A DNA stretch of 64,000 nt. It comes from an uncultured Eubacteriales bacterium (GTDB taxonomy: Bacteria; Bacillota; Clostridia; Oscillospirales; Oscillospiraceae). Position numbers and translations under genes: made by a program. The notes below the pieces were generated by a model that did no database searches, had not been told where the DNA came from, and saw only the letters and a list, made by a program, of their open reading frames with translations. Location of the stretch: assembly GCA_900544975.1 (NCBI GenBank), contig UQXI01000007.1:4285-68284 (forward strand). Reading direction: 5' to 3'. Of this stretch, positions 3,401-61,800 are shown piece after piece (the stretch's first letter is position 1; the number at the start of each line of letters is the position of its first letter).

Positions 3401-6400
3401 GTGCATTGTGGCCGATCCAGGCAATGGTGCGGTATTCAGGAGTAGCCCAGATCAGAACATCGTTGGCATAGTCATAGCACATGGACTGCACGTAGCTCAG
3501 GTTGCCCAGGTTTTCCAGAATCAGCTCATATCCCAGATTGCTGCCATCCACATGCAGCTTCAGCAGTTCCCCTGCGGTGGCAATGGAATACAGCTGCCCT
3601 TCCCCATCACAGGCCAGCGTCCACAGCGTGGGGCCGTAGCCATAAGCCACTTGAGTCAACTCACCGGTCTTCAGGTTGGCAGAATACAGGGCTCCATCAT
3701 CTACGGCATACATGGTACCGGTGGTGTAGTCATAGGCCATATCGCTGGGGTAAGAGCTCTGGGCCGCACCCACGGCGATGCACTCGCCGGTCTTCATATC
3801 ATAGCGGTAGAGCTGGCCCGTCTCAGAATAGCCGTAGAAGTAGCCATCGTGACCGTTGTAGTCGCCAGCAATGAAGTCCACAGGGACATCCGCCAGGGAC
3901 TGATAGGTCATGCTCTCCAGGTCCACCTGGATCATATCACCGTAGCTGCCGGTGCCGTTGTAGTAATCATAGGCAAAGAAGCTACCGGCAATCTGAATCG
4001 CAATCACTTGGCAAGTAGCCGTCCGGTCACCGCAGTGCGCGGTAATGGTGGCATCGCCTGCGCCCACAACGGTCACCACGCCACGGTCCACCGTTGCAAC
4101 CGCCTCATTGCTGGAGGTCCAGGTGACCTCTGTCAGCTCTGCATTCCAGGGGATGGGATTGACCTTCAGCTCCGCCGTATCGCCCACGCGCAACTGCAAA
4201 TTCGTGTGATCCAGCCAAATGGAGGTGACCTCGGTGGATGCCGGGATCTGATACTCTGTCTCGTTCAAGGTCAGAAGACCCACCAACTCATTGTCAGACT
4301 GGTAAGACTGGCCAGCGGCGGAGACGTTGCCGAAGACCGTGTGAGTGTAAGCATAGCCGTCAGCCGGGTCAATGGTCAAAAGCTCAGAGACATTGCCACT
4401 GGCCTTGCCGCGGAAATACGCCCAGTAGATTTTCCCATCGGCAATCGTCATGGATTGGGCATAGTTGGGGCTCAGATTGGCGCCGGTGTAGTCCAGGAAG
4501 GTGATGGCCTTGCCGTCCTCACCAGTGACTGCCTTCATAGCCCAGGTCTCTCGATCCACAATAAAGAGGTTGGCGCTGGTGTAGCGGTTGGCATACATCA
4601 CGCCTTCGTCAGAAATGGCAATGTTGTACAGGCCGAATGTCTGGTAGCCGTAGTTTTTCAGCATCGTCAGTTCGCCGGTTAGCAGGTCTACAGACTGCAG
4701 CTCAGTCATGGCGGAGCCGCCTCGTCTGGTCACCATGTACATGGTATCTGTGGTGTCATCAAAAGCCATGTCCACAACGGGCACGCCCAGGTTGGTGATG
4801 ACCGTGCGGTTCCACAGGCCAGGCTCCATCACCAGGAAGTCGTTGTTTGCATCCACCGCAAAGATTTTGCCGCCAGCATATTCCGCAGCCGTCAGGGCGT
4901 AGGTTTCCAGACGGTCATTGGTCAAGCTCTTGACCCAGGTGACGTTGTCCGCATCGGGCGTCTTTGCAAACTGGACCCAGCCGTACATGTCATCCCTGGC
5001 AATGCCCTGGTCATGAACGCGATAGGCATACAGAAGGTCCGTGTCCAGCTCGGGCATATTACCGTCCCCGGCAGAAACATAGGTCAGCTGATATGCGCTC
5101 TCGTTGGCAGCATAGTCACCCAGACTCAGGCGGAATTCCGTGCCCAGGCCGGTGATGTCGAAGGTAACCACGCAGTTCCCTTCCGCATTGGTTTCAAAGG
5201 AAGAAGCCTCCCGCAAAATCCGGGTGCCGGTGGTGTTCATCAGCCGGGCGATGGCCAGATCCACCTCATCCGCAACCTCCACGGTCAGATAGTACTTGCC
5301 ATTGTCCTGGGTCTCCTGGGGATTCCCCAACAGCTCAGGAGCATTGGTGTCTACCGTGATGGGAATTTCCAAAACATGATCGCCGCCATTGCCATAGTCT
5401 AAGGCGCCCTGGATGGTCAGCAGAACCTTCGTGCCACTGGGTAGCCCTGAGAAGTCAAACAGGTTCCTACCATACCAGGAGTAAATCCAAGGGATCGTCT
5501 GGCCAACAGCAGAACGGTAAACCGTCTTGCTGGCGTTACCGATGGTCTCCCGCTGGACCACTTCCCCATCCACGGTATATGTAAAGGTCAGTGTCTTGGC
5601 GTTACGCATCAGCGACAGGTAAATTTCACTGATGTCATCGAGCATGCCATCGCCGTTGGGAGAGAGGGAGTTGTGAGCGGGATCATACACAATTTTTCCG
5701 TCCTCGCCCAGGGCGGGGGCCACGTAGGGGTTCAAACCCAGAACCCAGTCTTGATTGCCCAGGCTCGTCCATACCACGTTGTAATACTCGTTGGCATCGG
5801 GCAAGCCGTCGGAAGACGGGAGACCGAAGAAGCCGTTATCATACCAGAAGCCACTGTCAAACACAGGCGCATCTGTCCAGTCTCCATAGAAGCCCAGGTA
5901 GGGCAGACTCAGATCAACGCCGTCTTCGGCTTCGTTGGTCAGGTATACAAAGCCCTCCACATAGATGCCGTTTTCAAAGTGCTCGTCCATCCAGACTTTG
6001 TCTTCCTCGGATAGCTGGACCGTCACAGTGACATTGGCAATGCCGCCGGCAGGCACAACCACGGTATCCTTGTCGAAGGTGACAGAGCCGCTGAGGGCCC
6101 GGTCCTGCCCGGCCATGAAGTCGATTCCGCCGGTATTGGTCACATCCTCCGTCAGCAGACTGGCAGACAGGGTGTAGCGTTTTTCAGCTTGGGAGAAGTT
6201 GTGCACCTCAAAGCTGAAGACATACGAACCGGCGCCGTGATCGCCCAGGGAGACCTTGGGCTTATGGCCGCCTACGGTCAGGTAGGCTTCGGAGGTGACG
6301 GCGGACAAGGCGTTCACCAGGCCGGAGCCCTGCTGCCGGGGGGAAGCCTCCACCTTGGACGCGCTGCCGACAACTGGCTCGGCGGTACTCATCAGCAGAG

Positions 6401-10129: not shown

Positions 10130-10326
10130 GGCCTGCCCTCCTTGGTTTTTATCTATGATATCTCCCCAGCCCATCAATTGCAAGGCAAAAAGCAGCGGAA
10201 AAGTAGGCAAAGCCTGCCCACCCCGCGTATCACAAACCCCCATAAGAAGCAGCGTCCTGTTTTTGCCGCTTCCTATGGGGGTTGCTTCATCCTTTGGCTA
10301 GGCGGGGATCAGCCGCCGGTTTATGA

Positions 10327-13300
10327 TTAGAAGTTCTGATCCAGAATGGTCAGGAGCTTGGCCATCTGGGCACGGGTGAGCGTTTTGCCGGGACGGAGGG
10401 TGCCGTCTCCATAGCCTTCGAAGAATCCTTCTGCAACCGCCCAGCTCATAGCAGTCTTCGCATAAGAATGGACTGCTTCCCCGTCTATATAGGCCTTCAG
10501 GTCTGCGCCCTGAATCGGTTCCTGTTTCAGGTACAGGGTGACATACCGGTATAGGAACGTGGCCGCCTGCTCCCGCGTGACGGTTCCCTCGGGGGCAAAG
10601 ATGGTGGTGGTCATACCCTGCACAATGCCCAGATCTTCCGCCCAAGCCACAGCATCGGTATAGTAACGTCCCTCCTTCACATCGGTGAAGGTCGCAGGCT
10701 CGGTCACTTCCGGCGTGCCTGCCAGGCGGTACAGCGTGGTCACCAGCTGGCCCCGGGTGAGGGCGCCGTTGGGGGCAAAGCGGGTGGCGGATATGCCGTT
10801 CATGAAGCCGTGGTCAAGCACATAGTCCGTGTATCCATGGTACCACTGGGTGATGTCCAGATCCATAAATCCTTGGGAGGCGCAGTGGGCCGGAATGACC
10901 TCGCCCCGCTTTACAATCTCACCGCAGACGGTGCAAACCTCATCGCCGGTGTAACCATCTTCGGTGCAGGTGGCTTCCTTGGCGTTCCGCAGCTCCGTCT
11001 TGTGGCCCAGAGCAGGAATCACCTCGCCCTGCTTCACCGTCTCGCCGCAAACCGTACAGACCTCATCGCCGGTATAGCCATCCTCGGTGCAGGTGGCTTC
11101 CTTGGCATTCCGCAGCTCCGTCTTGTGGCCCAGAGCGGGAATCGCCTCACCCTGTTTCACCGTCTCGCCGCAAACCGTGCAGACCTCGTCGCCGGTGTAG
11201 CCGTCCTCGGTGCAGGTTGCCTCCTTGGCGTTCCGCAGCTCCGTCTTCCCGTGACCCAGAGGCGCGGTGAAGTTATCGTGATACCGATAGCCGCAGACGG
11301 AGCAGGTGTATTCGTCATAACCGGAGGTGGTACAGGTGGGGGCAATCACCGTCTTTTCGTATTGGTGGCCCTTGGCGGAGATGTTCTCCTCCTTGGTCTC
11401 GCCGCACACGGTGCAGGTGTGATGCATCACGCCTTCCTCGCAGCAGCCGGGCTCAACCTTGACTACGCCCTCGTCCCAGCTGTGGCCGGTGGCGGGGATC
11501 ACCTCACCCTGTTCCACAATTTCGCCGCACACGGTGCAGACCTTGTCGCCGGTGTAACCATCTTCGGTGCAGGTGGCTTCCTTGGCGTTTTGCAGCTCGG
11601 TTTCCCCGTGGCCCAAGGGCGCGGTGAAATGATCGTGATATCCATAGCCGCAGACAGAGCAGACATATGCGTCGTAGCCGGAGGTGGTGCAGGTGGGCGC
11701 CACCACCGTCTTGTCAAACCTGTGGCCGGTGGCGGGGATCACCTCGCCCTGCTTTACGATCTCGCCGCAGTCAATGCAGACCTCATCGCCTGTGTAACCG
11801 GCTTCGGTACAGGTGGCTTCCTTCTGGCCCACCAGCTTTGTATTCGTGTGCTTATGGCCCTCTACCAGCGCCTGAATGGCGGCAGCCAGGCCGGTGGCAG
11901 CATCGTTCACCTGGGACTGGGTCGCCGTCTCATTGGCGGCCACCGCCCTGGCCTCTTCCAACGCATCTGCGAGATTGGCCCAGGTTTCGGCGGTGTAATC
12001 GTGTTCTGCAAGGGCCTCCGCCACAGCGATGGTCGCATTCAGGTCAGACCGATCCGTAACAAAGGGCGTGCGTGTGGATTCTGCCACCTTCAGGTATCCG
12101 ATGGGATGCTGCGCCATCAAATTCGTGATAAACTCCAGCTGAAGGCCCCGGGGCAGCTCCATCATCTCCATTCGGTATTGGCGAACGCCGGTCACCGGGT
12201 TGTCGTAGACCATGGTGGCCTCGTACATGTCGTAATCGGAGGAACTCCGTCTGTAACGAAGAGCGGTGATGTTCTGGCCGGTGAAGTTGCCATCGTTGTA
12301 GTTGGAGAAAGAGGGGAGATTGCCGCTTTCTATGGTCACCGTCACCAGGTAGGTGTCGTCCGCCGTCTCTTCAATTTCCACGGTGTCCTTAATAATGGGA
12401 GAAATTTCGCTATTGTCAAGGTCCATGAAGCTAAACTTGCTGAGAACGGCACTCATGGTATAGTGCTCCGCCTCCTGACTGCCTGCGGAAATCGTCAGGT
12501 CCTTGGAGATGGTATACTGGGTCATGTCCCGGACATAAACACGAACCGTAAGGTCTGTATCTCCCATGGGAACCGTCGCCGTATTTTGAGTGGAGAAGCC
12601 CTGGAGCTCCGTTTCCACGCCGTTTGCATCCACGGTGACGAAGCGGTATTCCGTCCCCTCAATGCCGCCGGTGGCGGAAGCGGTAACCTGGGCAGCTTCC
12701 TGGTCCTGGGCTGCGTCCAGCTCCACAGACAGCGGCGTATAGGCCTGCAAGCTCACCTGGGCGCCCTTCCGGCTGTTGAGGTCCGCCACCAGGGCCTCGC
12801 CGGACGCGTACCCTGGGGTGCCCGGCTGGGCGTAGAACACGGTCTTGAACACATCGTTGAAGAGATACTCTCCCACATCTGTAATGCCCGCGCCAAGGAC
12901 CACATGCTTGAGGGTCGTATTCCCGGAAAACGCGCTCCGTTCCAGAGTCTTCACACCATCACCCAGGTAGAGGGTCTCCAGGGCGTCCATGCTGGGAATC
13001 CACGCCACGCTGGTGTCGTTGCCCTTGGTAAACACCAGGTGCTTCAGGGAACCCATAAAGGAGAATGCCCAGCTGGCCACGGTTTGGAGGTTATCTCCCA
13101 GGGTCAAGGTCTCAATGGCAGCATTGGCAAAGGCAAAGGCTCCCACCGTCTCCAGGGAATTGGGCAGTTGAATCTCCTTCAGGCTGGTGCAGCCGTTGAA
13201 GGCGCTGGTGCCCAAGGTCTTCAGGCCCTCCTGGAAGGTGACCTTTTCCAGCGTTGTGACATTTCGGAAGGCAAAATTCGCAACAATTTCCACTGTGGCG

Positions 13301-22680: not shown

Positions 22681-23658
22681 ATGTGTACTGCAATCACCTA
22701 TCAAACGAAAGACCATTATTTTGGGCGAAACCTGGATCTGGAGTATGTCTACCGGGAGACCGTAACCATTACACCCAGGAACTACCCCTTCCGGTTCCGG
22801 CAAATGGGGACCATGGAGCGGCACTACGCCATGATCGGCATGGCCTACGTGCTGGGGGACTACCCCCTGTATTACGACGCCACCAACGAAGCCGGGCTCA
22901 GTATGGCGGGGCTCCACTTTCCGGACAACGCCGTGTACCGTCCCGAGGAGCCGGGGTGGGACAACGTGGGGTCCTTTGAGTTCATTCCCTGGATCCTGGG
23001 CCAATGCGCCACCGTCCAGGAGGCCCGAGCCCTGCTGGACCGTCTGAGCCTGTGGGACACTCCCTTCAGCTCGGAGCTGCCCCCCTCTCCCCTGCATTGG
23101 ATGATCTCAGACCGGAACAGCTCCATCACTGTAGAACCTCTGGCCGATGGCCTGCGGGTCTATGACAACCCGGTGGAAACCCTGACCAACAACCCGCCCT
23201 TTGATTATCAGGTCAAAAATCTGTCCAACTACCTGAATCTCACGGCCTGCGTCCCGGAAAACCGCTTCTGTACGCAGCTGAACCTCACCCCGTACAGCAA
23301 GGGAATGGGGGCCATGGGGCTGCCTGGGGACCTGTCTTCCGCCTCCCGGTTCGTGCGGGCTGCCTTCACCCGGATGAATTCCGTGGCCGGTGACTCGGAA
23401 TCGGAGAGCGTCAGTCAGTTCTTTCAAATCCTGCGTTCTGTCGCCATGGCCCGGGGCTGCGTACGCCTGGGCGGGGACAGCTACGAGATCACCGTCTACT
23501 CCTCCTGCTGCAACACAGACCGGGGCATCTATTACTACACCACCTATGAAAACAGCCAGATTTCCGCCGTGGACCTCCATGGAGAGGACCTGGATGGAAC
23601 CCGCCTGGTGTCCTATCCCCTCATCACCGGGCAACAAATCCGAATGCAGAACCGGTAA
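22681..23658 (+). CDS. Choloylglycine hydrolase family protein (Ntn-hydrolase; bile salt hydrolase / penicillin V acylase type)
   Basis: Starts MCTAITY, so the catalytic Cys2 follows the initiator Met. Length (325 aa) is typical. NRxxD-like motifs (GRNLDLEY) are present. RBS GGGAGG lies 8 nt upstream. Confidence 0.85.
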   Translation: MCTAITYQTKDHYFGRNLDLEYVYRETVTITPRNYPFRFRQMGTMERHYAMIGMAYVLGDYPLYYDATNEAGLSMAGLHFPDNAVYRPEEPGWDNVGSFEFIPWILGQCATVQEARALLDRLSLWDTPFSSELPPSPLHWMISDRNSSITVEPLADGLRVYDNPVETLTNNPPFDYQVKNLSNYLNLTACVPENRFCTQLNLTPYSKGMGAMGLPGDLSSASRFVRAAFTRMNSVAGDSESESVSQFFQILRSVAMARGCVRLGGDSYEITVYSSCCNTDRGIYYYTTYENSQISAVDLHGEDLDGTRLVSYPLITGQQIRMQNR

Positions 23659-25423: not shown

Positions 25424-25448
25424 AGTCATAGATCCTTTTCCATGGGGA

Positions 25449-25700
25449 ATTGCGAATTCGCCGAACGTGAGAGGAACATGCAAAATGTTTCTGCCGGGCG
25501 GACACATAGGTCCGCCCCTACGGCAGATGGGAAGTCTGGGCAGAAATTGCTCGACACATTTTGTCATTTTAGTGCCCCGTATCTAGCGAAAGCATTCTCA
25601 TTTTACGGAAACACCGAAGAATCTATCAACGCACCACGTTGCGATACGATCGTAGGGGCGGACCTATGTGTCCGCCCGTAGCAGACACTACGATTTTGCC
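25449..25700. repeat. Copy A of ~250-bp interspersed element with 27-bp hairpin-forming terminal inverted repeats (GGGCGGACACATAGGTCCGCCCCTACG ... CGTAGGGGCGGACCTATGTGTCCGCCC); MITE/REP-like or structured ncRNA
   Basis: Shares the ATTGCGAATT(c/t)GCCGAA leader, the arm sequences and the internal GGGCAGAAATTG(c/t)TC(g/a)ACAC(a/g)TTTTGTCAT with copy B at 40753..41000. It lies in a 333-bp gap inside the ABC transporter operon. Confidence 0.7.
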
Positions 25701-25756
25701 GGACATGCCCCAGGTCTCCTGGGAAAACGGATTACATACAAAGAAGGAAGTGGACT

Positions 25757-29819: not shown

Positions 29820-30044
29820 ATGAGCAACACCCAATCAGGAGACGAAAGGCGGCGCAAGCGGAGCGGTCAAGACCGCTCCCTACGTATACCCGGTGCTCCA
29901 CGGAAAAAAGGATACGCAGTGCTGGACCCACAAAAAACGTTTTTCTTTTCAGAACGGACAACATGTGCTATAATAAAAAAATAGCGGTTATCACCGCCGA
30001 TTGGGGGCACAATCCGGAACCTGCCCCGAAGGGAGCGAACCAAT

Positions 30045-33843: not shown

Positions 33844-36800
33844 ATGGGTAGAAAAATTACGGATCCGCAGGAAATTGAGGCGTTGTTTCGGCTGTTGAAT
33901 CGAATGGCAGATGGGTATGAGGCGACGGAGAAAGAGGCTGCAGAATTGGAGGAAATCGATGAAATTGGAACCCCCGACTTTATAACGTCCTCTGAATTTT
34001 TTAATGCGGTTAGTATGCGGAGAGAACTAGCGATATCACTACGCGGAGTTGACCAGCTCAAGTGTTTGTGTACTCTGAATTTGTGCTACATATCAGTTAG
34101 CGATCTAAGTGGAACTCATTTCCCTGACAGAATCCAATCTTTGAATCTGAGTAGCACACAAATCACCAGTCTGGACGGTGTCCATTTGTCTGCAGAGCTC
34201 CAGTCGCTGGACCTGAGTGACACACAAATCGCCAGCCTGAAAGACGTCCAGCTGCCTACAGGACTCCAGTCACTGGACCTGAGCGGCACACAAATCACTA
34301 GTCTGGACGGTATCTATTTGCCTGCAAAGCTCCAGTCGCTGAAGCTGAGCAGCACACAAATCACCAGTCTGGACGGCATCCGGCTGCCTGCAGAAATCCA
34401 GTCGCTGAACCTGCGCAGCACACAAATCACCAGTTTGGACAGCATCCAGCTGCCTGCAGGGCTCCAGTCGCTGGACCTAAGTGACACACAAATCACCAGT
34501 CTGGACGGCATCCAGCTGCCTGCAGAGCTTCAGTCGCTGGACCTAAGCGACACACAAATCACCAGTCTGGACGGTGTCCAATTGCCTGCAGGGCTCCAGT
34601 CGCTGAAGCTGCGCGGCACACAAATCACCAGCCTGGACGGCATCCAGCTGCTTGCAGAACTCCACTCGTTGGACCTGAGCGACACACAAATCACCAGTCT
34701 GGACAGTGTCCAATTGCCTGCAGGGCTCCAGTCGCTGAAGCTGCACGGTACACAAATCACCAGCCTGGACGGCATCCAACTGCCTGCGGAACTCCAGTCG
34801 CTGGACCTGAGCGACACACAAATCACTAGTTTGGACGACATCCGGCTGCCTGCAGGGCTCCAGTCGCTGGACCTGAGTGACACACAAATCACTAGCCTGG
34901 AAGACGTCCAGTTGCCGCATCATATCCAGTCCTTGAATCTTTCTGGCCTGTTCCTGTGCCAACTTCCGCCCAAACTTCTATCGCTCAACATTCCATTTGT
35001 ATTTAAATTTAATCCATTATATCCATCATATGGAATCTTGCTAAAAGAAACAATATTAAATATTCAGCCTATCAGTCTCTTCGAACAGCCCCGTGAACTC
35101 ATTGAGAGCTATTACGCAGCACCCAAGGTTTCCATCAGCGAAGCCAAAGTCATCTTCCTGGGCGATGGCGGTGTAGGGAAGAGTTATACCATTCAGAGAA
35201 TCCACAACGATGGATTGCCCGGGAACTATCCTACCGAGACGACGCCTGGCATTGACATTACAGACTTCCCGGTCCGTCAGCCTAATTATAATTTTGACAT
35301 CCACTTTTGGGACTTTGGCGGCCAAGAGATCATGCACGCCATGCACCGGTGCTTCCTGACCAGCCGCACCTGTTACGTGGTGGTCATCTGCAACCGCTAC
35401 CAGGACCTGACCGGACAGGCCCGGTACTGGCTGAACAACGTGGCCAGCTTCGCCAAAGATTCTCCTGTCATCCTGGCTGTGAATCAATGGGACAACATCC
35501 AAACCCGCGACTTGGATCATCGCCGGTTACAACAAGAATTCCCCAACTTAGCAAAGGTCGTTTTTTACTCCGCCAAGGATTCCAATCAAAAAGAATTCCA
35601 AGCGCTCACCAACGCCATTGTTGATCAAGCCCGGCACTTGGACAGCTGCGGCATGGAATTCCCTGTAACATGGGCTGGCATCCGGGAGAAGCTGTTATCT
35701 CTGGCCAAAGAAAACCGAAACTATATTAGCAAGGACGAATATTATCAAATCTGTCAAGAAAACAAGGAGCTGTCTCCGGAAATCTGCGTTTGGCTCCTGG
35801 AGTGGTTCAATGACCTGGGCGTTTGCTTTAGCTACCATCAAAATGCAGAAGACAAAAAGGAGCTGGCGGAATACAAGGTCCTGAATCCTGTCTGGCTCAC
35901 CAACGCCATCTACATCATCATCAACTGCGGACCGCGCCGGGCAACCAACGGCATCATTCACACCCAGGTGATTCTGGATTTGCTGCAAAAGCCGGAAACC
36001 AGTGTTCTTCCTGGCGTCACCTACACCGCCCAAGAGCGGAACTATGTCTTAGAGGTGATGCGGAAATTTCAGCTCTCCTACGCCGTCTCCGAAAGTCAGG
36101 AGTTCATTCCGGCCCTCTGTCCGGACGTCACGCCCAAGGAGTTGCATCCCACCAGCTGGAGAAAGCACGTTGCTTACGAGCTGCAATACACGTACCTGCC
36201 TGACAGCGTGATCCATCAGCTTATGATTCGCTTCTACCATTGCCTCAACATCGGAAAAATTTGGCGAAAAGGTCTGCGAATTGACCCAGACCCGATCAAC
36301 GGCCTAATGGCGGTGGTGGATATGGGCGGCGGGGACTCTATTTTGCGCATTGACGTCTATGCCCAAGCGGATACCCCACCTTGGCCGCTGCTGCATCAAC
36401 TTCGCGATGACATCATCCTCATCAATCAGGCCCTAAACCTGAAGGCAGAGGATTACATTGTCGTACAGAAAAATCGTCATACCGCACGGTTTTCTGTAAC
36501 ATATGTCCTACAGGCGAAGGAACGCGAGTATTCGAAACTACCCTATTCTTCCGAAGGCTGGTTTGAAGAGTACGATATAGCCGACATCCTGGGAACTGCT
36601 TTTGGTCCCGAAAATATTGAAGCTGCAGCCCAGATTCTGCCAAAGTCTGAAAATTTGAGCACTGTCCTATATCAGCCAATCATCCACGTTCATGGCAACC
36701 TCAATTATTATGCAAATTGTCAAGTCTCCAACACGTCTGAATCCGCTGAGCGTCTCCTTCGCGCCGTGCTGGAACACGAAGAGAAATTCAATGAACAGCT

Positions 36801-37053
36801 GACCCAGGAGCTGATTTCTATTTTCCAAGGCCAATCTGCTGACCGGGATGTGCAGCAACTGGGCGCAGAAATGGCGCGGGCCAAAGCCCAGAAAAAGAAG
36901 CCCCTGGCCCGCCTGAGGGATTTTCTTAAGAACAGCGCAGACACCGCCGGAAACCTGCAAAAGCTGGCAACCATTTTGGGTCCCTTCGTGTTAAAGCTGG
37001 TGGAAAAGGCCCCAGAAATCCTGCAATTCTTCCAAGCCGCTCTTTCTCATTGA
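33844..37053 (+). CDS. Bacterial ROCO protein: ~13 tandem 22-aa leucine-rich repeats + Roc (Ras-like GTPase) + COR domain + C-terminal coiled region (1069 aa)
   Basis: The LRR unit is LQSLDLSDTQITSLDGIQLPAE. Roc G-motifs are G1 GDGGVGKS, G2 TTPGID, G3 DFGGQE and an unusual G4 NQWD instead of NKxD. A COR-like region follows (EFPVTWAGIREKL...). Confidence 0.8.
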   Translation: MGRKITDPQEIEALFRLLNRMADGYEATEKEAAELEEIDEIGTPDFITSSEFFNAVSMRRELAISLRGVDQLKCLCTLNLCYISVSDLSGTHFPDRIQSLNLSSTQITSLDGVHLSAELQSLDLSDTQIASLKDVQLPTGLQSLDLSGTQITSLDGIYLPAKLQSLKLSSTQITSLDGIRLPAEIQSLNLRSTQITSLDSIQLPAGLQSLDLSDTQITSLDGIQLPAELQSLDLSDTQITSLDGVQLPAGLQSLKLRGTQITSLDGIQLLAELHSLDLSDTQITSLDSVQLPAGLQSLKLHGTQITSLDGIQLPAELQSLDLSDTQITSLDDIRLPAGLQSLDLSDTQITSLEDVQLPHHIQSLNLSGLFLCQLPPKLLSLNIPFVFKFNPLYPSYGILLKETILNIQPISLFEQPRELIESYYAAPKVSISEAKVIFLGDGGVGKSYTIQRIHNDGLPGNYPTETTPGIDITDFPVRQPNYNFDIHFWDFGGQEIMHAMHRCFLTSRTCYVVVICNRYQDLTGQARYWLNNVASFAKDSPVILAVNQWDNIQTRDLDHRRLQQEFPNLAKVVFYSAKDSNQKEFQALTNAIVDQARHLDSCGMEFPVTWAGIREKLLSLAKENRNYISKDEYYQICQENKELSPEICVWLLEWFNDLGVCFSYHQNAEDKKELAEYKVLNPVWLTNAIYIIINCGPRRATNGIIHTQVILDLLQKPETSVLPGVTYTAQERNYVLEVMRKFQLSYAVSESQEFIPALCPDVTPKELHPTSWRKHVAYELQYTYLPDSVIHQLMIRFYHCLNIGKIWRKGLRIDPDPINGLMAVVDMGGGDSILRIDVYAQADTPPWPLLHQLRDDIILINQALNLKAEDYIVVQKNRHTARFSVTYVLQAKEREYSKLPYSSEGWFEEYDIADILGTAFGPENIEAAAQILPKSENLSTVLYQPIIHVHGNLNYYANCQVSNTSESAERLLRAVLEHEEKFNEQLTQELISIFQGQSADRDVQQLGAEMARAKAQKKKPLARLRDFLKNSADTAGNLQKLATILGPFVLKLVEKAPEILQFFQAALSH
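34130..34940. repeat. Near-identical 66-bp tandem repeats (LRR coding array)
   Basis: Repeating cagtcgctggacctgagcgacacacaaatcaccagtctggacggcatccagctgcctgcagagctc units. They generate spurious minus-strand ORFs at 34116..34962. Confidence 0.85.
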
Positions 37054-37396
37054 GCATTCCCCATTGGGGCATATGGGTATCGCTCAGGAGTGTGCAGCTT
37101 GTCCTTCCACCTGCCCCGTAGGGTGCTCCCGGACGCTACCCGGCAGAAGGGGCTTACCGTGGCGGCCGGTCTGGGCGAGTTCGTACCCGCTTTTGGGGGC
37201 AGGTTCGGATTTGCCCACATGCTGTGGAGTACGGAACATCCTGCCGCAGGTGCGTCCAGGAGGCCGCACCCTACGGCCCTCAGCTTATGGATGTTAAAAA
37301 ATCATGGCATATCCCTGTAGGGGTATACCGTGTGCGTCAGGCTGTAGAAACCTCCGGTTTTTCCGAATTTTGGGTGGGTTTGCAGGTTTTGGAGGC

Positions 37397-37480
37397 GGGC
37401 GCACACTGTGCGCCCCTACAGCGCCCCTACAGCGCCCCTACAGCGCCCCCGTAGCGCCCCCGTAGCGTCCCTGCAGCGTC
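37397..37480. repeat. Hairpin GGGCGCAC-act-GTGCGCCC followed by tandem short repeats (cagcgcccctac x3, agcgcccccgt x2)
   Basis: Seen directly in sequence. The motif is related to the arms (GGGCGGAC..GTCCGCCC-CTACGG) of the 250-bp element. Confidence 0.7.
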
Positions 37481-37594
37481 TGTGCACGATCCTGGCAAAT
37501 TTTCGGGGGTTATTTTCGCTGTATGCATTTCCCCTTCCAGATATGCCTCAGCCCGGAGGCTGCCGTCAGGCATGCTCCCGGGCTGTGTTGGGTT

Positions 37595-38300: not shown

Positions 38301-40577
38301 TCACTCCTTCTCCAGTTCCACCTTTCCGTCCCGGACCACAGCCCGGAGGGCAGAAATGGGAGTCTCAAAGCTGTCGATGATGGCCTCTGCAATGGGGTCC
38401 TCCAGATCCCGCTGGATGGTCCGGCGGAGGTTTCTGGCTCCATAGGTGATGGAATAGGCCTTCTTGGTGAGATAATCCCCCAGAGTCTCGTCCCAGGTAA
38501 AGGACAGGCCCCGCTCTGCCAACGCATCCCGGAGCTCTGCCAGCATAATCCCGGCGATGGCCCGGAAATTCTCCTCGGACAGGTGGTTGAAGCTGATGAT
38601 CTCATCCACCCGGTTCAAAAACTCCGGCCGGAGGAACTCCCGCAGGGCCTTCATAGCCCCTTCCTTCCGCTGCTCCGACAGGGTCTGGCCAAAGCCCAGG
38701 CCGCTACTTTTCCGGTCGGACCCGGCGTTGGAGGTCATCACCAAAATGGCATTTTCAAAGTTCACCACACGGCCCTGGGCGTCGGTGATCCGGCCGTCGT
38801 CCAGCACCTGCAGGAGCACGTTCAGCACGTCGGGATGGGCCTTTTCGATCTCGTCGAACAGGACCACGCTATAGGGCCGCCGACGGATCTTTTCCGTGAG
38901 CTGGCCCGCTTCATCATAGCCCACATAGCCCGGGGGCGAGCCGATCAGCTTGGAAACCGTGTGCTTCTCCATATACTCCGACATATCCAGACGGATGAGG
39001 GAATCCACCGAGTCGAACATCTCCCCGGCCAGGCACTTTACCAGCTCCGTCTTGCCCACACCGGTGGGACCCACGAAAATGAAGGAAACCGGCCGCTTCT
39101 TGGGGGAAATGCCCACCCGGCTGCGGCGGATGGCACGGCTCACCGCCTCCACCGCTTCGTCCTGGCCTACAATCCGCTCTTTCAGGCGGTCGCCCAGGTT
39201 CCGGAGCTGCTGGTACTCCTGGGCCTGAATCTTACTGGCGGGAATCTTGGTCCAGAGCTCAATGATCCGGGCCAGGTTCTCCATGGTGACCGGCGGGGGC
39301 GGCAGCTGGTCCAGCCGCTCAATCTCCGCGGCCACCCGGCAGAGCCTGCTCCGAAGCTCCGCCAGGCGCTCATAATGCTCCCCTTCCGTGTCCTCGGTGA
39401 GCATGCGAAGCTCCAGCTCATAGTCGTCCCGCTCCTTTTTCAGCTCCGACAGCCGGGAGATTTCCCGGCTGCGGAGGTTCACATCAGAGCAGGCCTCATC
39501 CAACAGGTCAATGGCCTTATCCGGCAGGAAGCGGTCGGTGATATACCGCTCCGACAGGACGACGCACTGCCGGGCAATCTCCGGGGAGATGGACACCCCG
39601 TGGAACTGCTCGTAATAGTGGGCGACGCCCCGCATGATCTCCGCCGCCTCGGCCATGGTAGGCTCCGCCACCGTCACCGGCTGGAAGCGGCGCTCCAGGG
39701 CGGCGTCCTTTTCAATGTACTTCCGGTACTCCGAGAAGGTGGTGGCGCCAATGACCTGGATCTCCCCCCGGGACAGGGCCGGCTTCAGGATGTTGGCGGC
39801 ATTCATGGAGCCCTCCGCATCCCCGGCGCCCACCAGGTTGTGGACTTCGTCAATGACCAGGATGATGTTGCCGCAGACCTTCACCTCGGCAATGAGGCTC
39901 TTCATCCGGCTCTCAAACTGGCCCCGGAACTGGGTCCCGGCCACCAGAGCCGTGAGGTCCAGGAGGTATACCTCTTTGTCCCGAAGCTTAAACGGAACCT
40001 CCCCCTGGGCAATCCGCTGGGCCAGCCCTTCGGCAATGGCAGTCTTGCCCACGCCGGGTTCGCCGATGAGACAGGGGTTATTCTTCTGGCGGCGGTTCAG
40101 GATCTGAATGACCCGCTCCGTCTCCATGTCCCGGCCCACCACCTGGTCCAGCTTCCCCTCCCGGGCCCGGCCGGTAAGGTTCAGGCAGTAGGTGTCCAAA
40201 AATTTGTGTTTTTTGGTTTTAGGCTTGGGAGGCTCTTCTTTTTCCTTCTCCCGATTCGGCTTTTCCGGCAGATCCCGGCGACGGTCGGAGCCGCTGAACA
40301 GCTGGTTCAGGAGGGGGAAGGTGGCAGTTTGGCTGCCCACCTCGTCATCCTCCTCCGGCTGATCCTGGCCGAAGACGGCGGACATCTCGTCGCTGATCAG
40401 ATCCAGATCCTCTTCGGAGATCCCCATCTGCTTCACTGCATCATCAATTTGCGGAATTCCCAGCTTCCGGGCGCACTTCAGGCAGTAGCCCTCATTCCGG
40501 GAAACCCCGTTTTCCAAGCGGGTGATGAACACCACGGCTACATTCTTATTACATTTCACGCAAAGCTTTGGCTGCAT
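38301..40577 (-). CDS. clpE: ATP-dependent Clp protease ATP-binding subunit ClpE-type (N-terminal zinc ribbon, two AAA+ modules)
   Basis: N-terminal zinc ribbon CVKCN...CLKCA. Walker A GEPGVGKT and GPTGVGKT. The ClpP-docking loop region, UVR-like middle domain and sensor motifs are present. Confidence 0.9.
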
Positions 40578-40752
40578 AATCCAAACTCCAATTCAAACGG
40601 ATGTGTTTAGAAAAAAGTATAGCACAAATCCGGAAAAAGTCCAGTTCCATTTTCCCCCGACCTGGGCAGCGCTCCTGATTTGATGATACGTTCCTGCGCT
40701 GGTGTATCGTCGCCTTATGTGTATGCCCGTTGGTCATATGCGGAAATGGGCA

Positions 40753-41000
40753 TTGCGAATTTGCCGAAAATGGGCGGAAACCGTGTGATGTTTTCGCTGG
40801 GCGGACACACAGGTCCGCCCCTACGGAGGATGATAAGAATGGGCAGAAATTGTTCAACACGTTTTGTCATATAAATGCCAAAAATTTGGTAAAAATAGTG
40901 AGAATCCTACGGCAACGTCGAATATCTGTTGATACACTGCGTCGGGATATCATCGTAGGGGCGGACCTGTGTGTCCGCCCGTGGTAGACACTACAAATTC
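40753..41000. repeat. Copy B of the ~250-bp element with hairpin-forming terminal inverted repeats (GGGCGGACACACAGGTCCGCCCCTACG ... CGTAGGGGCGGACCTGTGTGTCCGCCC)
   Basis: Same architecture and conserved blocks as copy A. It lies in the divergent clpE / yabE-like intergenic region. Confidence 0.7.
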
Positions 41001-41205
41001 GTCAGAGCAGTATGAAACCAAGGCCCATGTCCCTGTGGAACCCCCCCGCAAGGGGGTCCGGCCAAATTCGTCTTATGTTAACCTTTTTGTAACTTTCTCC
41101 CCATATCTGGTGCTTTTCCGACGTTTTCCGTCAAAGATCTTGCCACAGGTTTCCAATAATATTGCTTGAAAAAATTGTCATTTTTCTGCCCTTTGCTAAA
41201 AACTC

Positions 41206-41233
41206 TTGACATTTCCGGCAAAATAGTTATAAT
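41206..41233 (+). promoter_or_regulatory. Sigma-A-type promoter (TTGACA-16-TATAAT) for yabE-like/rsmA operon
   Basis: cttgacatttccggcaaaatagttataat lies ~100 nt upstream of the ATG at 41332. Confidence 0.55.
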
Positions 41234-41331: not shown

Positions 41332-42495
41332 ATGCACACCATACAGCATCTTTTCCCAACGAAAAAAAGCCTGCTTCTGCGGCTGGGGGCAGTCGCCCTG
41401 ATCCTGCTATTGACTGCAGGTCTCCTCTCCCAGGCCGTATTTGCCCAGACCACTTACGTCATCACCGATGGCGATCGGGTACTTGTTCATACTACATATG
41501 CAACAGACCCTGCGGCCGTCCTCACCGAGGCAGGCCTGGAGCTGGGCGAGGCAGATACTTTCACCGCCCAATCTGACGGAGCCGTCTCTGAAATCACCGT
41601 CAAGCGGATTCAAATGGTCCGGATCAACAACGGCCACCAGGCTCTGGAATTGGCCACCTACGGCTGCACCGTAGCCGATGTTCTGGCGCAGCTGGGCATT
41701 TCCACAGAGGGCGATCTGCGCATTTCCCAGAGCCTGGACAGCGAAACCTACGACGGTATGGTCATTGATGTGGTTTATCTCACCTATGAGACCGTGGAAT
41801 ACGTGCGGTCCACCCCCTATGAGACGGCTTACTGCACCGATTCCACCCTGGAGCCCGGTGAAGAGAAAATCCTGACTCCCGGCCAGGACGGCAGCATCCA
41901 GTGCACCGCCCGAATCACCCGGGAGAACGGAACAGAGGTCTCCCGAACTGTCATCCAGGAGCAGGTCCTGGATGCCCCAGTCAACGCCGTCGTGGCCCGC
42001 GGCATTGACCGCTCCAGCAAAGAGCAGGAGGGCGCAGGCCGGGCCTATTCTCCGGAACGCACCACCGCAGAGGAGCCGGCCGGCCACGAAGCGCCCGCCG
42101 CCACCACAAGAGAGCCGGAACCCACCGCCGCCCCGGAGGAGGTCTCTGACCCCGCCCCCACCGGCAACACCTTCACCACTGCCTCCGGCGAGGTGGTCTC
42201 CTACTCCCGGAAGCTGACTGTGGACGCCACCGCCTACAGCTGCGAGGGCTATACCGGCACCACCGCCACCGGCACCACCGCCCGGTACGGCGCCATTGCT
42301 GTGGACCCCAGCGTCATCCCCTATGGCACCCGGATGTACATCGTCTCTGACGACGGCTCCTACATCTACGGCTATGCCACTGCGGAGGATTGCGGCGGCG
42401 CCATTCAGGGTTACATGATCGACCTGTATTTTGACACCCTGGCAGAGTGCTATGCCTTTGGCCGCCGGTCCTGCACCGTATACATCCTGGATTGA
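41332..42495 (+). CDS. 3D-domain (RlpA/MltA-like) cell-wall protein with DUF348/G5-like region (YabE-like)
   Basis: N-terminal TM/signal segment. The C-terminal 3D domain DATAYSCEGYTGTTATGTTARYGAIAVDPSVIPYGTRMYI is present. It sits upstream of rsmA, as yabE does in Bacillus. RBS AAAGGAGG. Confidence 0.8.
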   Translation: MHTIQHLFPTKKSLLLRLGAVALILLLTAGLLSQAVFAQTTYVITDGDRVLVHTTYATDPAAVLTEAGLELGEADTFTAQSDGAVSEITVKRIQMVRINNGHQALELATYGCTVADVLAQLGISTEGDLRISQSLDSETYDGMVIDVVYLTYETVEYVRSTPYETAYCTDSTLEPGEEKILTPGQDGSIQCTARITRENGTEVSRTVIQEQVLDAPVNAVVARGIDRSSKEQEGAGRAYSPERTTAEEPAGHEAPAATTREPEPTAAPEEVSDPAPTGNTFTTASGEVVSYSRKLTVDATAYSCEGYTGTTATGTTARYGAIAVDPSVIPYGTRMYIVSDDGSYIYGYATAEDCGGAIQGYMIDLYFDTLAECYAFGRRSCTVYILD

Positions 42496-51077: not shown

Positions 51078-51427
51078 ACCGCGACCGGGTCGGACAGCCG
51101 CGGGGGGAGGCCGAAAGGCCCCCCGTGAGGAAAGTCCGGGCTCCACAGGGCAAGGATAACGGGTAACGCCCGCCGGGGGTGACCCTAGGACAAGTGCAAC
51201 AGAGAGATACCGCCTCCCTCCCGGGAGGTAAGGGTGAAAAGGTGCGGTAAGAGCGCACCCGCCCCATGGGAACATCGGGGTGCTGTAAACTCTATCCGGA
51301 GCAACACCGTGTGTGGGACAACAGGCTGGCCCGGCCGTCCCCAAGAGGTGGCTGGAACCCAGGAGCAATCCTGGGTCTAGATAGATGGCTGTCAATGACA
51401 GAACCCGGCTTATAGACCCGATCGCGC
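51078..51427 (+). ncRNA. rnpB: RNase P RNA (bacterial type A)
   Basis: Contains the universally conserved P4 strands GAGGAAAGTCCGGGCTCCACAGGGCA and ACAGAACCCGGCTTA. GGGTGAAAAGGTGCGGTAAGAGCGCACC (P10-P12, type A) is present. The P1 stem pairs gcgaccgggtc with gacccgatcgc. Confidence 0.9.
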
Positions 51428-51433
51428 CAAAGA

Positions 51434-61599: not shown

Positions 61600-61800
61600 C
61601 GACCCAACAAAATACGGAAATCTTCAGGGCAGGGTGAAATTCCCGACCGGCGGTGAGCCCCAGGGCGAGTCCGCGAACGCTGCTTGCAGCGCCGAGCTGG
61701 TGAGACTCCAGCACCGACAGTACAGTCTGGATGGAAGAAGATGCGCACTGGTCTATGTGCGTTTATTTTCGCGCCCGGAGAATTTCTCCGGGCGTATTTT
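61600..61800 (+). ncRNA. FMN riboswitch (RFN element) with terminator-type expression platform
   Basis: Conserved RFN core CTTCAGGGCAGGGTGAAATTCCCGACCGGCGGT ... GCCGACAGTACAGTCTGGATGGAAGAAG, like the B. subtilis ribD leader. The terminator gcgcccggagaatttctccgggcg + tattttg is at 61771-61800. Confidence 0.9.

Follow-up and report, generated by a model that had tools for sequence, protein, structure and literature searches.

GTAG-tagged REP doublets, probably of BIME/REPIN type, in an ABC importer operon and a divergent promoter region of a gut Oscillospiraceae-like Clostridia genome

The window considered here, which is the whole stretch of DNA that was analyzed (64,000 nt), carries two copies of a short interspersed element in two different genetic settings. 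Copy A (~25444-25703) lies within an ABC importer operon, in the 333-nt gap that separates the stop (25423) of a gene for a substrate-binding protein (SBP; SBP_bac_5) from the start (25757) of a permease gene, the first of a pair assigned to BPD_transp_1. Copy B (~40747-41006) lies in the divergent promoter region between a minus-strand gene for a Clp-type AAA+ ATPase, which starts at 40577, and a plus-strand G5/3D-domain gene, which starts at 41332; it is flanked there by outward-facing consensus promoters at 40643-40616 (minus strand) and 41206-41233 (plus strand, 12 of 12 matches). Both locations are extragenic, between Pfam-supported genes. A gene of the choloylglycine (bile-salt) hydrolase family (22681-23658; CBAH, E = 1.7e-95) is found directly upstream of the ABC importer operon and fits a bacterium of gut origin.

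Alignment of both regions indicates that the copies are ~255 bp long each and ~78-80% identical, and the 64-kb window contains no further full copy. A preliminary description of this DNA had placed the same two copies at 25449-25700 and 40753-41000, the first in the unusually long operon gap and the second in the divergent promoter region. Our reading and alignment bear out the presence of the copies, their location and their genetic settings; their extent had to be revised, with similarity reaching slightly beyond those ends. The constituent parts of the two copies, together with a remnant upstream of copy B, are as follows.

25444..25495, plus strand: left linker module of copy A, with the palindromic block GCGAATTCGC; it matches the 56-57-nt linker of the arrays at loci L138, L124 and L133
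25496..25522, plus strand: left REP-type arm of copy A, the hairpin GGGCGGAC-ACATAG-GTCCGCCC (25496-25517) followed by the foot CTACG (25518-25522)
25523..25650, plus strand: core of copy A between the two arms, 128 nt, with a conserved 5' block at 25538-25567
25651..25677, plus strand: right REP-type arm of copy A, the foot CGTAG followed by GGGCGGAC-CTATGT-GTCCGCCC; exact reverse complement of the left arm
25678..25703, plus strand: right tail of copy A, the first ~26 nt of the next linker (GTAGCAGACACTACGATTTTGCCGGA)
40716..40734, plus strand: half-arm remnant upstream of copy B, a degenerate 3' half of a right arm with tail (TATGTGTATGCCCGTTGGT); 2 of 2000 shuffles score equally
40747..40798, plus strand: left linker module of copy B, from alignment with copy A and the family units
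40799..40825, plus strand: left REP-type arm of copy B, GGGCGGAC-ACACAG-GTCCGCCC followed by CTACG
40826..40953, plus strand: core of copy B, 128 nt, with the conserved block at 40841-40870
40954..40980, plus strand: right REP-type arm of copy B, CGTAG followed by GGGCGGAC-CTGTGT-GTCCGCCC
40981..41006, plus strand: right tail of copy B, a partial linker

All four arms share the same construction, with a GC-rich 8-bp stem (GGGCGGAC-N6-GTCCGCCC), a 6-nt loop and a CTAC/GTAG foot. As the preliminary description had noted, the left arm is itself a perfect 8-bp hairpin in both copies, and the right arm is its exact reverse complement; the resulting inverted repeat is perfect over 28 nt in copy A and extends over 42 nt at 83% identity in copy B. 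Counting both strands, the arm pattern yields eight matches in the window, against an expectation of 0.03, and the arm-to-arm distance is an identical 128 nt in A and B. The internal block reported between the arms is present in both cores (0 matches expected from shuffles), and a conserved 3' part of the core of copy A (TACGG.AAC..CGAAGAATC...GCAC) adjoins the right arm. Inspection by eye revealed no extended inner inverted repeat between the core halves.

The 5' block that had been described as common to both copies was also recovered (GGAATTGCGAATTCGCCGAA at 25446-25465 and GGCATTGCGAATTTGCCGAA at 40749-40768), and comparison with related loci assigns it to a linker of 56-57 nt, which connects the right arm of one unit with the left arm of the following unit. 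In A as well as in B, a near-complete linker precedes the left arm, and the first ~26 nt of a linker follow the right arm. The arms, which had been taken for terminal inverted repeats, are hence better described as subterminal, with similarity continuing for ~50 nt past the left arm and ~26 nt past the right one. Checked for target-site duplications, the positions at which similarity between A and B ends show no direct repeat of 5 nt or longer, the ends being defined by this comparison and not by an exact empty site.

GTAG-tagged REPs are defined as GC-rich stem-loops with GTAG directly at the foot (Di Nocera et al. 2013, PMC3733652). In the window, a GC-rich palindrome of 20-40 nt with a perfect 8-bp stem occurs four times, and CTACG/CGTAG stands right at the foot of the stem in four of four arms, as it does in the other family members. 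By these features the arms classify as ordinary GTAG-tagged REP hairpins. They also display the shape reported for the REPs of subclass 2.4 (Quentin et al. 2018, PMC6006769), namely GTAG-GGGCGGAC...GTCCGCCC, with three consecutive G-C pairs at the bottom of the stem and a 5' GT[AG]G foot. A search for CTAC-tagged GC-rich hairpins across the window returned nine candidates, compared to 1.4 in shuffled sequences; four of these are the arms of this class, at least three are other hairpins with the same tag, and three of the latter are listed below.

37397-37419: REP of a second class, GGGCGCAC-ACT-GTGCGCCC-CTAC
37249-37278: CTAC-tagged hairpin, GGTGCGTCC-agga-GGCCGCACC-CTACGG
29860-29883: CTAC-tagged hairpin, GGAGCGGT-caag-ACCGCTCC-CTACGT

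These hairpins suggest that several REP classes reside in this genome. The second-class REP lies inside the intergenic region 37054-37594 and is followed directly, in the segment 37397-37470, by 11-nt tandem repeats (AGCGCCCCTAC three times and AGCGCCCCCGT twice).

The arm is not confined to this lineage. A genome scan using one genome per species returned at least 135 exact matches to the pattern GGGCGGAC-N6-GTCCGCCCCTACG in at least 118 genome stretches, against a chance expectation of 0.3-3 matches (21 specified bases and ~1.2e12 positions, by our own arithmetic). The phyla represented among the matches listed include Acidobacteriota, Chloroflexota, Bacteroidota, Cyanobacteria, Planctomycetota, Desulfobacterota and Nitrospinota, among others, and the matches listed also come from lineages of the candidate phyla radiation and from several Clostridia; the exact 27-nt REP is common to at least 15 phyla at the nucleotide level. 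Among the matches listed, the flanks are unrelated and the loops are non-random, most of them conforming to ACAYRG and others showing lineage bias (GAATGC and GAGGGC in Acidobacteriota; AGAGTC and AGAGGC in Oscillospiraceae). The same 27-mer pattern is present in 53 viral-contig stretches from IMG/VR. When the whole element was compared by BLAST with the arm-bearing genome loci (at least 118), only the arms matched, over 27-49 nt, and the arms therefore constitute a pan-bacterial REP class, the core being lineage-specific. Sharing of the 27-nt REP across phyla and with viral contigs hints at horizontal spread or at a strong shared constraint imposed by RAYT recognition.

A connection to transposase genes emerged from a protein search using the translation of the element as seed, which identified P0141, annotated at NCBI as 'transposase, partial'. 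Downstream of its HUH motif, PNHFHGII, this protein contains VGADLCVRP...GRTHRCAPT, the in-frame translation of the two hairpins. Using P0141 as the tblastn query, full genes were located beside hairpins in a Dehalococcoidia MAG (L068) and in a deltaproteobacterial MAG (L117), and a fragment was located in L089. The L068 ORF (3682-4269, 195 aa) matches Pfam Y1_Tnp with 24.5 bits, above the cut-off of 23, and its best NCBIfam match is REP_Tyr_transpos (49.9 bits, E = 3e-13), under the 80-bit cut-off. The same REP as in the window lies in this ORF twice: in frame, after the HUH motif and before the Tyr motif (3964-3989), and again at the 3' end (4265-4291), where the stop codon is formed by TAG from the GTAG foot. 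The L117 gene (2366-3002), which is frameshifted, is organized in the same way, with an in-frame copy of the REP that separates the HUH motif from the Tyr motif and another copy just 3' of the gene.

TnpA_REP subclass 2.4, equivalent to RAYT group 4, comprises proteins of ~194 aa with NH[IFV]H, WQ and Y..NP motifs, scattered over many phyla with modest copy numbers (Quentin et al. 2018, PMC6006769; Bertels et al. 2017, PMC5581495), and its REPs are long, have three G-C pairs at the bottom of the stem and are inserted in frame in tnpA_REP (PMC6006769). The repeat studied here resembles this subclass in the length and foot of the REP, in its apparently low to moderate copy number and its scatter over many phyla, and in the presence of an identical REP inside and 3' of ~195-aa Y1 genes with the NH[IFV]H...WQ...Y..NP signature. 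Judging from sequence, the placement of REPs in and 3' of the Y1 genes of L068 and L117 is the published hallmark of subclass 2.4; we found no description of an overlap between stop codon and GTAG foot as seen in L068, unlike the in-frame insertion, which is known for the subclass. The repeat studied here departs from this pattern in that tblastn with RAYT sequences detected no RAYT/Y1 transposase gene within the 64-kb window, and that no RAYT gene was seen in any Oscillospiraceae locus examined. The REP sequence itself points to a subclass 2.4 REP/RAYT system as the one to which the REPs of the host would belong.

Relatives of the complete unit were traced through spurious ORFs called on other copies, by translating the plus-strand frame of the element and searching protein sequences. 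Further family members were found in other gut-metagenome contigs (loci L123/L124, L131, L132, L133-L137, L138 and L139), and a scan of viral contigs added L172. In nine aligned units from seven loci, the gap from left to right arm measures 126-130 nt and the gap from right to left arm 56-57 nt, with a period of ~239 nt. One contig of 915 nt (L138) consists of nothing but 3.5 tandem units with this period, and three other loci (L124, L133 and L136) contain 1.3-2 units. In the nomenclature of Di Nocera et al. (PMC3733652), the succession left arm-core-right arm is a tail-tail dimer and the succession right arm-linker-left arm is a head-head dimer. Clusters of regularly spaced, alternating REPs with conserved inter-REP motifs are found in the related loci and not within the window.

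The modules of the family behave as a BIME-like mosaic. The linker occurs in both orientations (units 1 and 2 of L138, as well as L133, are opposite to the others), and in L172 it is the core that is inverted with respect to the linker. L139 has an unrelated core of 164 nt between identical arms and linkers, and L133 and L136 contain units that break off after the 5' block of the core. Orientation with respect to neighboring genes also varies, being sense in copy A and L131 and antisense in L133. L133 and L136 have their upstream genes and first unit in common and carry different downstream genes after the second left arm, a divergence for which either element copies that recombined or a chimeric assembly at the repeat would account. 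Scanning JGI metagenomes with the core pattern recovered only the same species, at 98-99% identity, and the family must therefore be rare or too diverged for an exact pattern; only two full units per genome were seen.

Comparison with orthologous operons addresses the origin of copy A. In L126 and L127, the gap between the SBP and permease genes measures 58 and 78 nt, respectively, as opposed to 333 nt in the window, and the permeases of these two loci are 86% and 85% identical, respectively, to that of the window; each of the two short gaps contains one small native hairpin. Because the orthologous gaps in relatives span only 58-78 nt, copy A is interpreted as an insertion relative to sister lineages. 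Two other loci, L125 (1-180) and L140 (2730-2990), with permeases that are 96% and 89% identical, carry in the same gap a head-head dimer of a different REP class (GGGCGCAC-N4-GTGCGCCC-CTACGG) with a related linker, the same class as the second-class REP at 37397-37419. The junction has therefore repeatedly acquired REP-type elements, and it resembles a hot spot at which REP classes replace one another. An exact empty site for copy A was not found among these operons: the relatives at 85-89% permease identity are too diverged in their intergenic sequence, and those at 96% and 89% carry the other REP.

We conclude, with a probability of about 0.8, that each copy is a REP doublet of BIME/REPIN type, with its tags pointing inward (tail-tail), a core of 128 nt and pieces of linker on its flanks. 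The copies present what defines a GTAG REP and a BIME/REPIN-type doublet at the level of sequence: inverted arms, the same 128-nt spacer in A and B, and similarity across the whole unit. The element is a gut-Clostridia version of the known REP/BIME (REPIN-like) selfish repeats, it represents no new type of transposon or RNA, and it reveals no new mechanism. The preliminary description had offered a MITE/REP-like mobile repeat or a family of structured RNAs as possible architectures; the REP-like component of that proposal stands, and the evidence discussed below speaks against both a classical MITE and a structured RNA.

A joint alternative, which we regard as unlikely, holds that the unit of ~239 nt goes beyond REP debris and functions as a nucleoprotein or regulatory module and, separately, that the REP found with identical nucleotides in at least 15 phyla and in viral contigs marks ongoing inter-phylum spread of one RAYT group-4/REP system. 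A functional module is conceivable because spacing is strictly kept (126-130 and 56-57 nt) and both core and linker are conserved across species in either orientation. By analogy with the IHF and gyrase sites of E. coli BIMEs, the unit could harbor binding sites for nucleoid proteins or for RAYT; if this were true, it would have been recruited to operon junctions and promoter regions in gut Oscillospiraceae.

We assign a lower probability still to the proposal that the element belongs to a family of structured non-coding RNAs, be they cis-regulatory or small RNAs, in which a long-range stem encloses a functional core. The predicted fold of copy A is very stable (-132.8 kcal/mol, z = -7.3), with a stem that does enclose the core, yet this stability is due only to the inverted arms. 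The core is partly conserved between species, but it contains indels, its orientation relative to the linker goes either way, and there are truncated units as well as units with another core. The single T/A versus C/G 'covariation' between copies A and B fails in the wider family. With the nine collected units, the covariation term from RNAalifold amounts to -0.32 kcal/mol, internal helices are poorly preserved, and the loops of left and right arms are non-Watson-Crick in 7 of 18 cells, with G-U-type mismatches even between strands. As had been anticipated, the element corresponds to no known Rfam family. At the gathering threshold, the window yields only a bacterial RNase P class A RNA (51082-51428, 265.9 bits) and an FMN riboswitch (61616-61746, 109.6 bits), both away from the element, and at E <= 10 the element adds nothing but a miRNA match of 13.9 bits to the hairpin, which is spurious. 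Transcription of copy A as part of its operon is almost certain, but the element is antisense to its neighbors in L133, and copy B sits between two promoters that face outward. A promoter and terminator scan across units identified neither a conserved promoter nor a terminator in the core, and a lone minus-strand promoter match in copy A (TTGATA-18-TAAAAT) is absent from the other units.

A classical MITE, that is, a derivative of an IS with a DDE transposase that moves by cut-and-paste through 27-bp terminal inverted repeats, would account for perfect inverted repeats of 27-28 bp that lie ~180 bp apart, for two dispersed copies with ~80% identity and for the insertion of copy A relative to sister lineages. 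We nevertheless deem it very improbable, given that no direct duplication of 5 nt or more flanks either copy where copy-to-copy similarity ends and given the subterminal position of the arms. In addition, each arm is self-palindromic and forms a hairpin with GTAG at its foot, arms are encountered alone as well as in tandem or alternating arrays across many phyla, and they are tied to Y1/RAYT genes and not to DDE genes. The Correia elements of Neisseria, which are MITEs with terminal inverted repeats of 26 bp, have TA target duplications and lack self-palindromic GTAG-tagged hairpins as arms, offer an instructive comparison. They resemble the element in being small inverted-repeat elements found in operons, with a long-duplex transcript that is a candidate RNase III substrate; the element described here differs in that it shows neither true terminal repeats nor target duplications and in that its arms are self-palindromic and GTAG-tagged.

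The notion that the element encodes a small protein, based on plus-strand ORFs of 79 and 85 aa or minus-strand ORFs of 49 and 51 aa that span it, has next to no chance of being correct: frames are open through both copies on both strands and gene callers do report such ORFs in metagenomes, but the frame varies within the family (a single hairpin is read as GRTHRSAPT or as GGHMGPPLR), the core contains indels of 1-5 nt, no precomputed Pfam domain exists for any such ORF, and the 'conserved' peptides are translated REP hairpins.

An IS200/IS605-derived PATE was also considered and rejected; it requires different hairpins at the left and right ends on one strand, and here the arms are exact reverse complements and the ends are symmetric.

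For REP doublets of the kind proposed here, dissemination would rely on a RAYT of subclass 2.4 (group 4 of Bertels et al.), present in the host now or formerly, that recognizes the single-stranded hairpin together with its GTAG foot. Nicking and rejoining by this RAYT beside the hairpins would allow doublets to spread without generating target-site duplications, and recombination between inverted or direct REPs may flip cores and linkers and expand or trim arrays. RAYT-driven transposition of REPs is not known to have been demonstrated in vivo in any organism, and how REPs disseminate is described as poorly understood (PMC8266576).

The doublets agree with the GTAG REPs and the BIMEs of E. coli (Di Nocera et al. 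2013, PMC3733652) in several respects: the repeat is an extragenic, GC-rich stem-loop with a GTAG/CTAC foot; it forms pairs in opposite orientation, with the tags inside (TT, across the core) or outside (HH, across the linker); and its dimers recur in tandem, the motifs between REPs being conserved and several REP classes sharing one genome. They differ in their host, a gut Oscillospiraceae-like member of the Clostridia, with Firmicutes missing from the phyla given in that survey; the nearest named homologues are labeled 'Oscillospiraceae/Ruminococcaceae bacterium' and are ~80% identical. They differ further in their TT spacer of 128 nt, which is conserved across species, compared with a usual spacer of 20-100 bp in GTAG dimers (PMC3733652). 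Their density of two units in 64 kb is also low relative to the described GTAG REP families. The REPINs of Pseudomonas fluorescens are likewise units made of two inverted REPs and a spacer that can fold into a long hairpin; the REPIN is regarded as the replicating unit, and its mobilization by a single-copy RAYT has been proposed (Bertels and Rainey 2011, PMC3116915). In contrast to REPINs, the unit presented here carries extra external linker sequence. Its spacer is also longer than that of REPINs, which measures ~70 nt.

At the importer operon, read-through into copy A is expected because a promoter and terminator scan predicts neither a plus-strand promoter nor an intrinsic terminator in the gap, and copy A would then be co-transcribed with the ABC operon. 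Its position, with the SBP gene on one side and the first permease gene of the importer on the other, is also that of the malE-malF and hisJ-hisQ REPs of enterobacteria. Those REPs reportedly, in work of Newbury and colleagues in 1987 and of Stern and colleagues in 1984, uncouple binding-protein mRNA from permease mRNA. For copy A, in distinction to those cases, an effect on mRNA is proposed by analogy: the very stable hairpins, or the 28-bp long-range duplex, may act as a barrier to 3'-exonucleases or as an RNase III site, and such a barrier or processing event would uncouple the SBP mRNA from the permease mRNA. REPs are known to be able to stabilize mRNA (PMC3733652). A REP-type mRNA barrier between the SBP and permease genes is thus, on this analogy, a likely side effect of copy A, and as such a by-product of its insertion and not the reason for which the element exists.

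The doublets extend GTAG-tagged REP/BIME-type repeats to an abundant, uncultured lineage of gut Clostridia, and copy A provides a concrete, testable instance of a REP doublet between SBP and permease genes, the malE-malF situation, in a Gram-positive gut anaerobe. They also bear on metagenomics practice. REP hairpins break metagenome assemblies, with several family members being located at contig ends or in contigs of 500-900 nt, and they give rise to spurious 'hypothetical proteins' (GRTHRSAPT and VGADLCVRP motifs), the recognition of which improves annotation.

The window contains other repeated sequences. A 66-nt (22-codon) repeat is present in twelve tandem copies at 34003-35028, inside a 1069-aa ORF (33844-37053). 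Positions 1-300 are duplicated with 100% identity at 10313-10612 (300 nt, 10.3 kb apart), and several repeats spaced by 123 nt, at 69-92% identity, relate positions 566-1063 to 10888-11861; the duplications at 1-1063 and 10313-11861 look like paralogous repeat-domain genes.
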